From a virus (lineage: Duplodnaviria > Heunggongvirae > Uroviricota > Caudoviricetes), in the IMG/VR virus record IMGVR_UViG_2663762627_000001, positions 1 through 4,189 of that record: a stretch of DNA of 4,189 nucleotides. One strand, 5' to 3'. Made by a program: the position numbers and the translations under genes. This document shows, piece by piece, positions 1 to 4,189 of the stretch. The notes under the pieces are model-generated. The model was not told the origin of the DNA and ran no database searches. It saw only the letters and a list, made by a program, of their open reading frames with translations. Position 1 is the first letter of the stretch; each line of letters starts with the position of its first letter.

Positions 1-231
1 GCCTTTGAGGTCGTGGTATGGATGACGGATGGCTGGCCGCTGTATGAATCCCGCCTGAAGGGAAAGCTGCACGTAATCAGCAAGCGTTACACTCAGCGCA
101 TTGAGCGACATAACCTGAATCTGAGACAACATCTGGCAAGGCTGGGACGGAAGTCACTGTCGTTCTCAAAATCGGTGGAGCTGCATGACAAAGTCATCGG
201 GCATTATCTGAACATAAAACACTATCAGTAA
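1..231 (+). CDS. insB: IS1 transposase InsB, C-terminal portion (5'-partial; stop TAA at 229-231)
   Basis: In-frame translation from position 1; the ORF track entry 13..231 begins at an internal GTG. Protein-level recognition of the InsB C-terminus. Confidence 0.9.
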
Positions 232-246
232 GTTGGAGTCATTACC
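224..246. repeat. IS1 terminal inverted repeat (outer end at about 246)
   Basis: The 23 bp atcagtaagttggagtcattacc is the reverse complement of the IS1 terminal repeat GGTAATGACTCCAACTTATTGAT as recalled, with one mismatch. Confidence 0.75.
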
Positions 247-433
247 AGCCATATGTTTTGCGCATGACAGCCAGGAAGACCAGAAGCTGGTGCTGTGTTA
301 ATCCGGCCAGCATTACAGCTTCCAGCAACTCATTTGCAATGCGCGTATAACCATCATCGAGATCTGCCACGCGCGGCTCCTTTTGTGCCATATCCGGCAC
401 TGGAAAATTGAATATCTCAGCAGTGTTTGCCAT
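242..433 (-). pseudogene. Replication initiator O-like gene, N-terminal fragment only, interrupted by IS1
   Basis: The minus-strand product MANTAEIFNFPVPDMAQKEPRVADLDDGYTRIANELLEAVMLAGLTQHQLLVFLAVMRKTYGW aligns with the N-terminus of lambda O (…VADLDDGYARLSNMLLEA…LLAILRKTYGW, from memory). The frame stops at a TAA (242-244) lying inside the IS1 terminal repeat, directly after the W codon (245-247). Start assigned to the ATG at 433-431, which sits 4 nt after a GGGAGG ribosome-binding site; the ORF track's longer form starts at 523. Confidence 0.8.
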
Positions 434-519
434 AATTCCTCCCGCAATGAGTGCGTTACGATTTGCACCTGAAAGTCGGTTCTGTTCCCGCAGACCGGCT
501 TTCGCCATTTCTGAACCTG

Positions 520-1059
520 TCATATTGCCCCCAGCATGGTGGTAACCATCGCCATCAATGGACCAGCCAGATCAGGATCCACACGAAACATCGACACAAT
601 GCCTTCACTCATCTCCTTCAGTTTCTGGTGGCGTGGTGCGTTGAGAATGACCGCCTGTTTTGCCTCGCTGAGCTCCTTTTCCATTTCAACCAGTCGAGCC
701 ATGAAGCTATCCTGCTCAACCAGGTGGCCGCGATATTTCAGCGGTAGTACTGCCAGAATTGCTGGAGTCAGTTCACGCACGTTATTTCGGTATTTTTCAG
801 AATCGAATTTGTTATCGAGAAAGCGGAACAGCTTCTGGCGTGCACGACTGACATCATCAGGAAAATCGATAGTGCCGCCGCCCTGTGCTCGATACTCATT
901 CACAATGAGTGCGGCAACGACATCCTGATTATCTACAGCCGACCAGGCGCGGACGGCATCACGGATTTTTTCGTGGCCTGGCACCTGTTTTATTTGAGAA
1001 CGATTTATCACCGCAGTCGGGATAAATCCGCTAGTCTGTTGGTATGTAATTGGTTGCAT
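520..1059 (-). CDS. CII-position regulatory protein, probably YdaT-family (179 aa from the ATG at 1059; the ORF track's 190-aa form starts at 1092)
   Basis: Long minus-strand ORF directly downstream of cro and upstream of the O-like gene. The ATG at 1059-1057 has an AAGGA ribosome-binding site 9 nt upstream; the ATG at 1092 has none. Motifs EYRAQGGG and LTPAILAVLP are reminiscent of YdaT-family proteins (family assignment from memory, not verified). Its stop overlaps the upstream in-frame ATG of the O frame in an ATGA arrangement (520-523). Confidence 0.6.
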   Translation of the reverse strand: MQPITYQQTSGFIPTAVINRSQIKQVPGHEKIRDAVRAWSAVDNQDVVAALIVNEYRAQGGGTIDFPDDVSRARQKLFRFLDNKFDSEKYRNNVRELTPAILAVLPLKYRGHLVEQDSFMARLVEMEKELSEAKQAVILNAPRHQKLKEMSEGIVSMFRVDPDLAGPLMAMVTTMLGAI

Positions 1060-1082
1060 AATTGATTCCTTTAGTCTGAATT

Positions 1083-1128
1083 GACTGTTCATCAGTCTGT
1101 TAAGTTGATTGCTTATTGTTAAAGAACG
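1083..1128 (-). promoter_or_regulatory. Candidate nutR-like site: boxA-like element plus a small hairpin, between cro and the CII-position gene
   Basis: Minus strand 1128->1115 reads CGTTCTTTAACAAT, one mismatch from the rrn/lambdoid boxA core (T/C)GCTCTTTAACAA as I recall it. 17 nt further downstream, GACTG-ATGAA-CAGTC (1097->1083) forms a 5-bp stem with a 5-nt loop, the same geometry as boxB. Position matches lambda nutR. Confidence 0.35.
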
Positions 1129-1140
1129 TGAAAAGGAAAT

Positions 1141-1371
1141 TTAAGCTGCATTCTTTTCGGTATGTGGAAACAACTTCGGAAGATCCGGGCGAATCTGGTA
1201 TGCCTTAACTACCCCGCCAGTAGCCGTAACAATGCTGCCGACATGTTCAGGGGATACCTTTGCTTTGTTGTGTAGCCACTTATAGACGGCCTGCTGTGAA
1301 ACTTCGCAGGCATCGCCCAGTTTCTTTTGTGAACCGACGATATTGATCGCGGTTTTGATTGCTGGGTTCAT
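1141..1371 (-). CDS. cro: Cro-like HTH repressor (76 aa)
   Basis: Minus-strand ORF divergent from the repressor gene, with a GGAGG ribosome-binding site 5 nt upstream of the ATG (1371-1369). The product MNPAIKTAINIVGSQKKLGDACEVSQQAVYKWLHNKAKV…VKAYQIRPDLPKLFPHTEK has the same pattern as lambda Cro (…[20 protein letters not shown]…VYAEEVKPFPSNKK). Confidence 0.85.
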   Translation of the reverse strand: MNPAIKTAINIVGSQKKLGDACEVSQQAVYKWLHNKAKVSPEHVGSIVTATGGVVKAYQIRPDLPKLFPHTEKNAA

Positions 1372-1398
1372 AACAACCTCCGTGGTTAACTTGAATTA

Positions 1399-1470
1399 AG
1401 ATTAAAACCATGGTTGTTTTTAGTCAACAACCATTTTCGTTTGATGAAATAAAACCTTGGTTGTACATTT
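1399..1470. promoter_or_regulatory. OR-like divergent control region with three operator candidates and PR-like/PRM-like promoters
   Basis: Two perfect 10-bp palindromes, AACCATGGTT (1406-1415) and AACCTTGGTT (1453-1462), flank a half-site-only copy AACCATTTTC (1429-1438); centre spacing is 23 and 24 bp. Minus-strand TTGACT (1427-1422) followed by an AT-rich -10 candidate TAATCT (1404-1399) would drive cro. Plus-strand TTGATG (1441-1446), a 17-bp spacer and TACATT (1464-1469) would place a transcription start at about the cI ATG, giving a leaderless message as at lambda PRM. Confidence 0.5.
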
Positions 1471-1475
1471 GGTCT

Positions 1476-2165
1476 ATGAAAACAACACTCTCAGAAAGAC
1501 TTAAAGAAGCCAGATTAGCGCGAGGCCTTACACAAAAGGCGCTTGGGGATATGGTCGGGGTTAGCCAGGCTGCCATTCAGAAAATCGAAACAGGGAAAGC
1601 TAACCAAACAACTAAAATCGTGGAGATCGCAAACGCTTTAGGTGTGCGCGCAGAATGGTTATCTTCTGGCGTTGGAAATATGTCAGACAGTACCGTGCAA
1701 CCAATACAATCAACTGTCAGCCATTCAAAATACTTCAAGATTGACGTTCTTGATATAGAAGTCAGTGCCGGACCGGGTGTCATCAACCGTGAGTTTGTGG
1801 AAGTTCTACGCTCGGTTGAGTACTCGTTTGACGATGCTCGTCACATGTTCGATGGCAGGAAGGCGGAAAATATCCGCATCATTAACGTGCGCGGTGACAG
1901 CATGTCAGGGACGATCGAACCAGGTGACCTGCTGTTCGTTGATATCACTGTTAAATCTTTCGACGGTGATGGCATCTATGCGTTTCTGTACGACGACACT
2001 GCCCATGTAAAACGTCTTCAAATGATGAAGGATAAGCTGCTGGTTATCTCTGATAACAAGAGCTACTCGCCGTGGGACCCGATCGAGAAAGACGAGATGA
2101 ACCGGGTGTTCATATTCGGTAAGGTCATTGGAAGCATGCCGCAGACGTACAGGAAGCATGGTTAA
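1476..2165 (+). CDS. cI: CI-like prophage repressor (N-terminal HTH, C-terminal S24/LexA-type autoprotease domain), 229 aa
   Basis: The HTH segment LSERLKEARLARGLTQKALGDMVGVSQAAIQKIETGK begins right after the ATG at 1476. The C-terminal half carries a candidate Ala-Gly cleavage site (VSAGPG), the catalytic serine motif GDSM and the lysine motif HVKRL. The ORF track's upstream start at 1410 would run through the operators, so 1476 is preferred. Stop TAA at 2163-2165. Confidence 0.9.
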   Translation: MKTTLSERLKEARLARGLTQKALGDMVGVSQAAIQKIETGKANQTTKIVEIANALGVRAEWLSSGVGNMSDSTVQPIQSTVSHSKYFKIDVLDIEVSAGPGVINREFVEVLRSVEYSFDDARHMFDGRKAENIRIINVRGDSMSGTIEPGDLLFVDITVKSFDGDGIYAFLYDDTAHVKRLQMMKDKLLVISDNKSYSPWDPIEKDEMNRVFIFGKVIGSMPQTYRKHG

Positions 2166-2340
2166 TTTATCTACGACTTAAGGGAGCGAAGGTTAAGGTT
2201 TATACCACTCGGATTAGATATTGCACTAAATTCTCTATAAGAACGCCAAATCTGTTTGCATATTTCAGTAAATATTCTCGTTGTTAGCTGAAATTTGTTG
2301 CTACTGTCAGCAAAATGTCCCCCTATCTCGTAGCGGTTTT

Positions 2341-2386
2341 TATTTCGAATCATTATGTTAAGATGTTTCTGATTATAATGAATGGA
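2341..2386 (+). promoter_or_regulatory. Candidate promoter for the lipoprotein gene
   Basis: Perfect TATAAT at 2374-2379 with TG at 2370-2371, 16 bp upstream of the ATG at 2395, in an AT-rich intergenic tract. No good -35 hexamer; the leader would be very short. Confidence 0.3.
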
Positions 2387-2394
2387 AACATAAA

Positions 2395-2775
2395 ATGAGA
2401 AAAATCCTAATCGCTGCCATGATGGCATCTCTATTGGCTGGGTGTGCTTCTTCAGGCAACCAGCAACTCAAAAATGAAACTGAAATTAGTGTCCAGTCTA
2501 AACTTCAGGAAGGTAAAACAACCAAGAATGAGGTTAAATCTTACTTTGGTTCTCCTGATGCTGTTTCATATACTGACAGTGGAAACGAGATCTGGAAGTA
2601 CGCCTTTGCAAAAGTAAAAGTTAATGGCACCACTTTTATTCCATTCTATGGATTATTCCATAATGGAACGAACGGTACGAAAAAAGAACTTACTATTCTT
2701 TTTAACGATGACACGATTAAGAAATACACAATGTCAGAAACCCAAATAAACTCGAAATCAGGTTGGGCTGACTGA
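2395..2775 (+). CDS. Outer-membrane lipoprotein of unknown function (126 aa), in the rexAB-equivalent slot; fold possibly BamE/SmpA-OmlA-like
   Basis: Signal peptide MRKILIAAMMASLLAG followed by lipobox LAGC; the residue after the Cys is Ala, consistent with outer-membrane sorting. Mature region has a pattern resembling BamE: GKTTKNEV…FGSPD…EIWKY…ELTILFNDD versus BamE GMTQQQV…LGTP…NTWFY…TLTLTFNSS. Codon usage is clearly more AT-rich than flanking genes, and the gene has its own terminator. Confidence 0.85.
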   Translation: MRKILIAAMMASLLAGCASSGNQQLKNETEISVQSKLQEGKTTKNEVKSYFGSPDAVSYTDSGNEIWKYAFAKVKVNGTTFIPFYGLFHNGTNGTKKELTILFNDDTIKKYTMSETQINSKSGWAD

Positions 2776-2783
2776 TAATCATA

Positions 2784-2810
2784 CCCGGCAACCGCGCCGG
2801 GTTTTCTTTT
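2784..2810 (+). terminator. Rho-independent terminator after the lipoprotein gene
   Basis: Stem CCCGGC (2784-2789) / GCCGGG (2796-2801) with loop AACCGC, followed by TTTTCTTTT (2802-2810). Confidence 0.8.
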
Positions 2811-2904
2811 CCTCCCCCTCATAACTCATACCGTCCAAAAAACCACCACACCTCACTTCAGTTATCGCTATGCGATGCAAGTCACAAAATAAATCCATCC
2901 TAAA

Positions 2905-2985
2905 TACAACCAGTTATATTTAAAACAACCGACAAAACAACTTTTGTTGTTGACGATAAAACAACTATAGTTTTAAATAAATTCA
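2905..2985 (+). promoter_or_regulatory. pL/OL-like region: candidate promoter and repeated operator-like motifs
   Basis: TTGACG (2950-2955), a 17-bp spacer, then TTAAAT (2973-2978). The ACAACC-type motif seen in OR recurs here: TACAACCA (2905-2912), AAAACAACC (2922-2930), the inverted repeat AACAAC-TTTT-GTTGTT (2936-2951) overlapping the -35, and AAAACAAC (2958-2965). Confidence 0.4.
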
Positions 2986-3034
2986 TCGCAACGACACAAC
3001 GATACGGTAACCACCTGTTTCACCGTTGCGATGA
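2983..3034. repeat. Perfect 11-bp inverted repeat with a 30-bp spacer in the pL leader
   Basis: TCATCGCAACG (2983-2993) and its exact reverse complement CGTTGCGATGA (3024-3034), immediately downstream of the candidate pL -10. Confidence 0.7.
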
Positions 3035-3255
3035 CCGCTTAGATCCGCAGTTTGAATTTCAGCAGGCTTCGGGGAGTGCGAGGGGTGAAACGGACGCGTG
3101 AACGTCGGTGTGACCAGCTGAAATCAACACAACACTTTATACCTCAGTCGCTTCAACGAGGCGGCTTAGTTATGACAACCGGCGGCCATCCACCGCCTGA
3201 ATACGCGCAGAAGTCTCTATATGTTCAGCAGCCCAGCTTACGGGCAGGAGTTTTT

Positions 3256-3462
3256 ATGGTTCATCAACATTACGGAACGCAGACCGTTAATCGCGGCGCG
3301 GTCATGCCAGGAATGCTGGTCAAACACAAAGATGGTACCTGGACTGCATCAGCTAATTTACGCGGGCGGCTTTATCTGCATCGCGGCATCGAGCGCACTT
3401 ATACCCGTGATTTGCTCGTAGAAGTTTTTCTCGACGGACGCGGTAACGGCCTGAATCACTAA
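3256..3462 (+). CDS. Hypothetical small protein (68 aa) in the N/kil position upstream of gam; may be the C-terminal part of a longer ORF
   Basis: ATG at 3256 has an AGGAG ribosome-binding site 5 nt upstream; stop TAA at 3460-3462. The same open frame extends upstream to a TTG at 3052, with a GTG at 3085 (GGGGAG 8 nt upstream) and an ATG at 3172 (GAGG upstream). Product MVHQHYGTQTVNRGAVMPGMLVKHKDGTWTASANLRGRLYLHRGIERTYTRDLLVEVFLDGRGNGLNH has no family I can recognise. Confidence 0.45.
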   Translation: MVHQHYGTQTVNRGAVMPGMLVKHKDGTWTASANLRGRLYLHRGIERTYTRDLLVEVFLDGRGNGLNH

Positions 3463-3538
3463 CCCCCCTTTCCTGTTTTCCTAATCAGCCTGGCATTTCG
3501 CGGGCGATATTTTCACAGCCATTTTCAGGAGTTCAGCC

Positions 3539-3835
3539 ATGAACGCTTATTACATTCAGGATCGTCTTGAGGCTCAGAGCTGGGCGCGTCACTACCAGCA
3601 GATCGCCCGTGAAGAGAAAGAGGCAGAACTGGCAGACGACATGGAAAAAGGCCTGCCCCAGCATTTGTTTGAATCGCTCTGCATCGATCATTTACAACGC
3701 TGCGGGGCCAGCAAAAAAGCCATTACCCGTGCATTTGATGACGATGTTGAGTTTCAGGAGCGCATGGCAGAACACATCCGGTACATGGTTGAAACCATTG
3801 CTCACCATCAGGTTGATATTGATTCAGAGGTATAA
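3539..3835 (+). CDS. gam: Gam, host RecBCD nuclease inhibitor (98-aa GamS form)
   Basis: Product [98 protein letters not shown] is near-identical to lambda Gam as recalled. AGGAG ribosome-binding site 8 nt upstream; stop TAA at 3833-3835. Confidence 0.95.
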
Positions 3836-3840
3836 AACGG

Positions 3841-4189
3841 ATGAGTACAGCACTCGCAACGCTGGCTGGGAAGCTGGCTGAACGTGTCGGCATGGATTCT
3901 GTCGACCCACAGGAACTGATCACCACTCTTCGCCAGACGGCATTTAAAGGTGATGCCAGCGATGCGCAGTTCATCGCATTGTTGATCGTCGCCAACCAGT
4001 ACGGCCTTAATCCGTGGACGAAAGAAATTTACGCCTTCCCTGACAAGCAGAACGGCATCGTTCCGGTGGTGGGCGTTGATGGCTGGTCCCGCATCATCAA
4101 TGAAAACCAGCAGTTTGATGGCATGGACTTTGAGCAGGACAATGAATCCTGCACATGCCGGATTTACCGCAAGGACCGTAATCATCCGA
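3841..4189 (+). CDS. bet: Bet (Red-beta) single-strand annealing recombinase, N-terminal 116 codons (3'-partial at window end)
   Basis: Product MSTALATLAGKLAERVGMDSVDPQELITTLRQTAFKGDASDAQFIALLIVANQYGLNPWTKEIYAFPDKQNGIVPVVGVDGWSRIINENQQFDGMDFEQDNESCTCRIYRKDRNHP matches lambda Bet as recalled; GAGG 10 nt upstream of the ATG. Confidence 0.95.
   Translation, partial: MSTALATLAGKLAERVGMDSVDPQELITTLRQTAFKGDASDAQFIALLIVANQYGLNPWTKEIYAFPDKQNGIVPVVGVDGWSRIINENQQFDGMDFEQDNESCTCRIYRKDRNHP

Follow-up and report, generated by a model that had tools for sequence, protein, structure and literature searches.

Gene content of the window

The stretch of DNA analysed here (4189 nt, hereafter the window) is the early control region of a lambdoid prophage, lying in the orientation opposite to that of the standard lambda map (Table 1). 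The stretch of OR at 1392–1431 recurs in inverted orientation as the OL region, which fixes the direction of both early operons. An IS1 end occupies the left edge of the window and interrupts gene O after approximately 93 codons, so that the replication gene is disrupted and the prophage is probably defective. The homology of all relatives begins at position 247, right of IS1, and the IS1–O junction itself was absent from both the GTDB representative genomes and the complete E. coli genomes. In intact relatives O is 1020 nt long, and the 3′ part of O together with P is 93% lambda-like.

Table 1. Features of the window, with their coordinates, strand and the evidence on which each assignment was made.
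Feature	Position	Strand	Evidence
IS1 right end (InsB C-terminus and terminal inverted repeat)	1–246	+	Pfam DDE_Tnp_IS1, E=3e-38
Replication gene O, 5′ part, truncated by IS1	247–523	-	Pfam Phage_rep_O; 56% amino acid identity to lambda O
YdaT-domain protein, cII position	520–1059	-	PF06254, E=3e-28; PHROG 163; 34% to Rac YdaT
Cro-position regulator, YdaS/P22-Cro-like HTH	1141–1371	-	PF15943, E=7e-17; 30% to Rac YdaS
OR	~1375–1470	none	OL region matches its 1392–1431 stretch inverted
CI-type repressor, HTH_3 and S24 peptidase domains	1476–2165	+	Pfam; tblastn against lambda cI, nothing
Lipoprotein moron between repressor gene and OL; weak BamE-like domain	2395–2775	+	Pfam BamE, E=1.6e-4 (below cut-off); PHROG 3135
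Intrinsic terminator 3′ of the lipoprotein gene	2783–2812	+	Terminator match to lambda; right edge of the moron slot
OL operators (AAAACAAC...GTTGTTTT-type half-sites) and putative pL	2921–2985	+	Inverted OR copy; promoter inferred from the sequence
Putative pL	TTGACG 2950–2955, spacer 17 nt, TTAAAT 2973–2978	+	Read from the sequence
pL-operon leader, ~270 nt, without an N gene, with RNA element 3136–3205	2986–3255	+	ORF list; annotation of relatives
KilR-family gene, predicted FtsZ inhibitor, 68 aa, last of the non-lambda segment	3256–3462	+	
Joint interval TCACTAA	3456–3462	+	Base-level comparison anchored on the kil stop; BLAST left end 3456
Lambda-type kil–gam spacer including the gam Shine–Dalgarno sequence	3463–3538	+	Alignment to lambda
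gam, 98 aa, predicted RecBCD inhibitor	3539–3835	+	PF06064, E=5e-64; 95/98 aa as in lambda Gam
bet (Red-beta single-strand annealing protein), first 116 codons, runs off the window	3841–4189	+	PF03837, E=2e-17

The original prediction for this DNA was that a lambda-like gam–bet module had been joined to an immunity region that is not lambda-like. With respect to the two recombination genes this was confirmed. The window Gam is 96.9% identical to its lambda counterpart at the amino acid level (95 of 98 residues, three changes) and matches PF06064 over its full length with 213 bits (cut-off 25), whilst the part of Bet that lies in the window, the N-terminal 116 of 261 residues, is identical to lambda Bet at all 116 positions, every nucleotide difference being synonymous, and scores 63.7 bits against the RecT family PF03837 (cut-off 24). 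That the differences from lambda in both genes are mostly synonymous indicates purifying selection on gam as well as bet. The repressor, Cro-like, YdaT-like (CII position) and lipoprotein gene products, also expected to be unlike those of lambda, indeed lacked a blastn match to that phage, and a tblastn search at E<0.1 gave no match in lambda for any of these four or for the Kil protein; the operators were likewise found to carry a half-site sequence that differs from lambda's.

Between kil and gam, the spacer at 3463–3538 carries two 1-nt insertions relative to lambda as well as an in-frame stop codon at 3482–3484, with the result that only the 98-aa Gam frame is open and the 138-aa frame annotated in lambda is not conserved; conservation in the region of the kil–gam joint is thus that of the 98-aa frame only. 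A scan for terminator-like structures placed a weak hairpin at 3488–3505 within this lambda-derived spacer, presumably in the region of lambda's tL2 terminator cluster, and the fold of the spacer (3463–3540) was no better than that of shuffled sequences (z=0.05). In an intact relative, the prophage of E. coli WP8-S17-ESBL-05, the lambda-like block spans 2.8 kb, from gam through exo to orf61, at 96.9% identity.

Position and abruptness of the joint

As the original prediction had proposed, BLASTN identity was followed along the window against lambda and other lambdoid genomes, and this located the breakpoint at 3456–3462. The comparison with lambda 30000–40500 gave a single substantial match, in which window positions 3456–4189 correspond to lambda 33193–32462 with 711 of 734 positions identical (96.9%) and two 1-nt indels, both in the kil–gam spacer. 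Over the same interval, 3456–4189, phage 21 matches the window at 98.8%. The other BLASTN similarity to lambda comprised a 23-nt identity within the O gene (window 348–370) and 32 nt at 87.5% between the terminator at 2783–2814 and the terminator after rexB. The breakpoint had been expected at around 3463, at the end of the upstream ORF; the end of the ORF proved correct whilst the exact base did not, homology to lambda starting 7 nt further to the left, at 3456.

The step in identity at this position is directly visible in a 100-nt identity profile against ten relatives. To the left of it, identity to the lambda counterpart was 44%, 50% and 57.5% over 50, 100 and 200 nt respectively, against 48%, 52% and 55% in shuffled controls, i.e. 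no diverged ‘shoulder’ was found over any of these three distances. Three properties of a mosaic boundary were all found here: an abrupt transition from >90% identity to background (96.9% on the right and, as in shuffled sequences, 44–57% on the left), synteny across a joint that falls at a gene boundary (the order pL–kil–gam–bet being that of lambda, and the boundary being the kil stop codon), and flanks that occur elsewhere with other partners (the right flank with a lambda-type kil in ~165 phages, and the KilR-type kil with RecET in HK225 and mEp237).

At base level the joint consists of the 7-nt sequence TCACTAA (3456–3462), the His-stop end of which is common to the lambda kil and the KilR-type kil. 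When the sequences are aligned from the stop codon of the gene preceding gam, that of the window is ...GGCCTG AAT CAC TAA CCCCCCTTTCC, and that of lambda, 21 and D2 is ...AAAAGC ATT CAC TAA CCCCCTTTCC. In HK225 and mEp237 the RecET-linked kil genes likewise terminate in ..SH* (AGC CAT TAA and AGC CAC TAG), and hence the CAC/CAT–TAA microhomology is native to both parental gene types. Since the penultimate kil codon, AAT in the window, matches neither the ATT of lambda nor the AGC of the RecET-linked relatives, it points neither to the parental sequences nor to a single crossover base; as judged from these alignments the crossover lies somewhere within TCACTAA or at its left edge. An identity of 7 nt is indistinguishable from a blunt illegitimate joint plus chance identity.

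The kil genes on either side

The 68-aa protein encoded immediately left of the joint matches PHROG 294 (E=1.3e-37) and Rac KilR (36% identity, E=7e-12), and is named ‘phage encoded cell division inhibitor protein’ in RefSeq. Against NCBIfam NF008465 it scores 63.1 bits (E=1.8e-17), which does not reach the curated cut-off of 92 bits, and on these comparisons it is a clear KilR homologue that falls outside the NCBI subfamily threshold. BLASTP gave no alignment between this protein and the 47-aa lambda Kil at E≤100; the lambda and window kil genes are analogous yet unrelated. The Rac kilS sRNA showed no similarity to the window.

It has been reported that kil genes are co-transferred with recombinase genes (PMC9836094), and the joint in the window is a case in which this kil–recombinase linkage is broken. 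In HK225 and mEp237 a KilR-family kil gene occupies the same position in the pL operon as that of the window, with 73–77% nucleotide identity, and is followed on its 3′ side, as in Rac (kilR-ydaE-...-recE-recT), by a ydaE-like gene and RecE/RecT, whereas the window has the Gam/Bet/Exo type. The DNA 3′ of kil in such RecET-linked relatives showed no similarity to the lambda spacer.

The immunity core and the moron slot

Amongst relatives of the window breakpoints recur at ~1060/1609, enclosing cro, OR and the DNA-binding domain of the repressor, and at ~2165/2784, the limits of the moron slot. Compared with 4A7-type phages, YdaT/O (96%), the C-terminal domain of the repressor (87%) and the block from leader through kil and gam to bet (93–97%) are conserved, whereas other sequence takes the place of cro, OR, the DNA-binding domain of the repressor and OL (1061–1608; ~2900–3000). 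The replacement of these two segments is an immunity-specificity swap of the classic kind, one of its joints falling at the domain boundary within the repressor gene. It follows from this layout that the original prediction, in which the gam–bet module adjoined an unrelated immunity region, holds insofar as the early region is not lambda's, but that the gene adjoining the joint lies outside the immunity core; the joint is the edge of lambda homology and not that of the immunity cassette in the strict sense.

The slot at 2165–2783 is variable, the lipoprotein gene being present in one of 47 IMG/VR contigs and in a minority of genomes. At this position 4A7 carries a 1062-nt hypothetical gene and an ASCH-domain gene, the PhiR5_1 and PhiR47_2 matches that span the gap list HipA/HipD and GevT/GevA annotations, and lambda has rexAB. 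The terminator of ~32 nt at 2783–2814 is conserved at 85–88% in lambda (after rexB), HK225 and mEp237, in which the flanking DNA is unrelated, and it could serve as a short homologous ‘linker’ for cassette exchange.

Distribution of the joint

The distribution of the joint was assessed using a 400-nt probe centred on it and a 28-nt query for the exact joint. Of 5426 complete E. coli genomes, 2159 (~40%) contained the 400-nt probe intact, and 18 phage records spanned the joint. A further ~165 phage records, including lambda, 21, 933W and Stx phages and SfI, contained the right half of the probe only, all starting at 3456, and ~25 contained only the kil half, at 60–80% identity. The exact 28-nt joint was found in 47 IMG/VR contigs, in all of which (47/47) the block 2784–4189, comprising the terminator, OL/pL, leader, kil, gam and bet, was continuous to the contig limits; this block moves as one piece in this lineage. 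Flanking blocks are common to the carriers of the joint at 92–100% identity. Within GTDB the single match to the joint was on a 5.5-kb contig, JAEWTL010000063.1 (L012), of a ‘Bacillota bacterium’ MAG, at 98% identity, and this contig, probably a binning contaminant, was set aside.

The E. coli WP8-S17-ESBL-05 prophage, which adjoins ybhC and has a DLP12-like nin region, is 99.97% identical to the window over 247–4189. PhiR26_1 matches the same interval in one piece at 97.4%. The original prediction had named uniform identity to a single known phage as the result that would speak against a mosaic, and formally PhiR26_1 provides such a match; since it is itself the same mosaic, its uniform match shows the joint to be common, not absent. 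The joint is of old date and has become fixed across a large lineage of prophages; sequenced phages and thousands of genomes already display the arrangement.

Comparison with known phages

The lambda Red region (NC_001416, 33,193–30,380) resembles the window from the kil stop codon rightwards (spacer, gam Shine–Dalgarno sequence, gam and bet; 96.9%). Upstream of this point the two differ in the type of kil, in the operators, repressor, cro and cII-position gene, and in that the window is without cIII, ea10, ral and N. The Bievrevirus phages PhiR26_1, 4A7, Lambda_4C10, Perceval and 1W/3W, together with matching E. coli prophages at the lambda attB site (ybhC), have the joint of the window, its leader–kil–gam–bet block and its YdaT/O, although most relatives differ from it in having a different immunity core (cro, OR, N-terminal domain of the repressor and OL), and a different cassette where the window has the lipoprotein gene. 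The copy in the window differs from these Bievrevirus relatives additionally in that gene O is cut by IS1.

Like the window, the imm21 and imm434 substitutions are blocks of non-homology with sharp joints at gene boundaries and a conserved gene order. Phage 21 and lambda have exactly the right-hand block of the window in common. Phages 21 and 434 have kil and cIII in common with lambda, and the left boundary of their non-homology is at a greater distance from gam, whereas in the window non-homology reaches as far as the kil stop codon.

Two other phages have joints of their own in this part of the pL operon. In the Salmonella phage SEN34 a KilR-type kil is followed by gam–bet–exo, as in the window, but the joint is independent: its 81-nt spacer is unrelated, and it is from ~15 nt upstream of the gam ATG that SEN34 again resembles lambda and the window, the overall identity being ~78–80%. 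Phage D2 has the leader of the window lineage through to the kil ATG and continues with lambda from the middle of cIII at 99.6% identity; it is evidently a very recent cross with lambda itself, possibly of laboratory origin. In D2 a truncated cIII stands under the kil ribosome-binding site (L009, 3767–3975).

Origin of the joint

We consider the interval 3456–3462 to be an old scar of non-homologous or microhomology recombination between two kinds of lambdoid pL operon, kept for its gene order, and assign this reading a probability of about 0.88. The left parent would have been an N-less 4A7/Bievrevirus (DLP12-like) operon with the order pL, leader of ~270 nt and KilR-family kil, and the right parent a lambda-type Red module consisting of gam–bet–exo and the small ORFs beyond, the crossover having occurred in or beside the 7-nt microhomology, CAC TAA being the end of either kil gene although the two are non-homologous. 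Where the joint lies, and that it lacks flanking homology, can be read directly from the alignments; from the lack of any flanking diverged homology we infer that the event was most likely illegitimate or microhomology-mediated, and not homologous. The recombinant would have survived with its joint exactly at a gene boundary, keeping a complete kil and the native (lambda) ribosome-binding site of gam, as well as the functional order of FtsZ inhibitor, RecBCD inhibitor, annealase and exonuclease under pL (pL–kil–gam–bet–exo). Transcription from pL would simply pass the joint, nothing functionally special being needed. Once the joint had been fixed, both flanks would have diverged by a few per cent and swapped segments by ordinary homologous recombination. 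Either parent may be the ancestral one, the lambda arrangement being equally possible as the derived form.

Approximately half of lambdoid mosaics are without a diverged shoulder and have been ascribed to illegitimate recombination, the others, which have one, being ascribed to Red-promoted homeologous exchange (PMC2327257), and frequent shuffling of Rec modules has been described (PMC12315714). A homologous or homeologous exchange, promoted for example by Red, might thus have used a conserved or diverged linker or shoulder at the kil/gam boundary. Red can recombine sequences that are 22% diverged (PMC2327257), the conserved 32-nt terminator at 2783–2814 flanks the moron slot in otherwise unrelated phages, and the right-hand block is patchy in identity among lineages, which is consistent with later homologous exchanges. 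We nevertheless regard such an origin as very unlikely, since the shoulder test was negative, identity to lambda left of 3456 being that of shuffled controls, the Kil proteins are without detectable similarity and only 7 nt are in common, and the RecET-linked relatives, as described above, have nothing similar to the lambda spacer 3′ of kil.

The stop and start codons around kil might alternatively be a crossover hotspot, so that the joint would reflect recurrent events at the same base and not one old event. Three distinct joints (those of the window, SEN34 and D2) do cluster at the ends of kil and gam, and CACTAA is common to both types of kil, but the three occupy three different positions, the flanks of the carriers are alike at 92–100%, as common descent predicts, and selection for intact genes alone accounts for clustering at gene boundaries; the chance that a hotspot produced the joint is, in our estimation, very slight. 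The standard view is one of largely indiscriminate recombination with selection retaining the products that have intact genes, and three different joints at the kil and gam ends fit this view.

Finally, although D2 resembles a very recent lambda recombinant (99.6%) and events in culture therefore do occur, a chimeric assembly or a recombinant made with lambda in the laboratory is excluded by the wide distribution of the joint, which occurs in 2159 complete genomes as well as in 18 phage genomes and 47 viral contigs of unrelated origin, and the lambda-like part of the window is only 96.9% identical to lambda.

A structured RNA in the pL leader

Upstream of kil, the leader contains an element of ~70 nt (3136–3205, + strand) that is 95% identical to HK225, compared with 73–76% for the kil coding sequence of the same phage, and conservation of the element extends towards the kil start at 3256. 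RNAalifold predicted a long interrupted hairpin with an AUG in its basal stem, followed by a short hairpin, GGCGG-CCAUCCA-CCGCC. Over 57 distinct sequences the proportion of cells that pair is 98.9%, compared with 86.9% in shuffles (0/500) and 30–47% in slid controls, and compensatory changes occur at seven pairs of the element; the invariance of the second hairpin is an ascertainment effect, this hairpin being part of the search pattern. The AUG of the basal stem begins an apparent uORF (MTTGGHPPP...). Since the conserved downstream block is in different frames at different loci, conservation is at the level of the nucleotide and not of the peptide. By comparison with shuffled sequences, the preceding part of the leader (2986–3140) folded no better (z=0.05).

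The element was found in >120 IMG/VR contigs, and a covariance model identified a single copy at each locus, in every case within the pL operon, and none in lambda, 21, HK022, Rac, mEp237 or SEN34. In other phages it often directly follows a rho-independent terminator, and various first genes lie downstream of it. A scan of the whole window against Rfam (E≤1) and a literature search using sequence strings of the element both returned nothing. As a separate observation, a stretch of the IMG/VR contig L154 (6980–7060, - strand) that lies between two tandem copies of the leader element ends in ...GGTTCGAATCCGGAGCACTCCACCA and resembles the 3′ half of a tRNA gene.

Several known types of element were considered and rejected. 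An HK022-type put antiterminator was discarded on the grounds that the element has no similarity to putL, which was located in HK022 through a published primer (PMC9378689), and that a further copy on the pR side is lacking. On inspection of the sequence alone, an integron attC-like site does not apply, GTTATGA not fitting GTTRRRY, and neither does an internal sigma-70 promoter, the element offering no acceptable spacing of -10 and -35 sequences. We tentatively suggest, whilst considering it rather unlikely, that the leader RNA could be a device for expression of the early-left operon without N/nut, acting through RNA antitermination, protection from Rho or translational control of kil.

Significance for lambdoid phages

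As a mosaic joint the arrangement described here is a minor but clean extra example of lambdoid modular evolution. Resolved to the base, without a shoulder and positioned at a stop codon, it shows together with the joints of SEN34 and D2 that selection confines surviving joints to gene ends. In E. coli a KilR-type kil combined with the Red genes is commoner than any other form, including the arrangement of lambda itself. The joint places the lambda Red genes and the lambda spacer hairpin behind an N-less leader that contains a covarying RNA, and should the suggested role of this RNA be true, the left parent of this widespread mosaic would employ a regulatory element that is new; the leader RNA may be of more interest than the joint itself.
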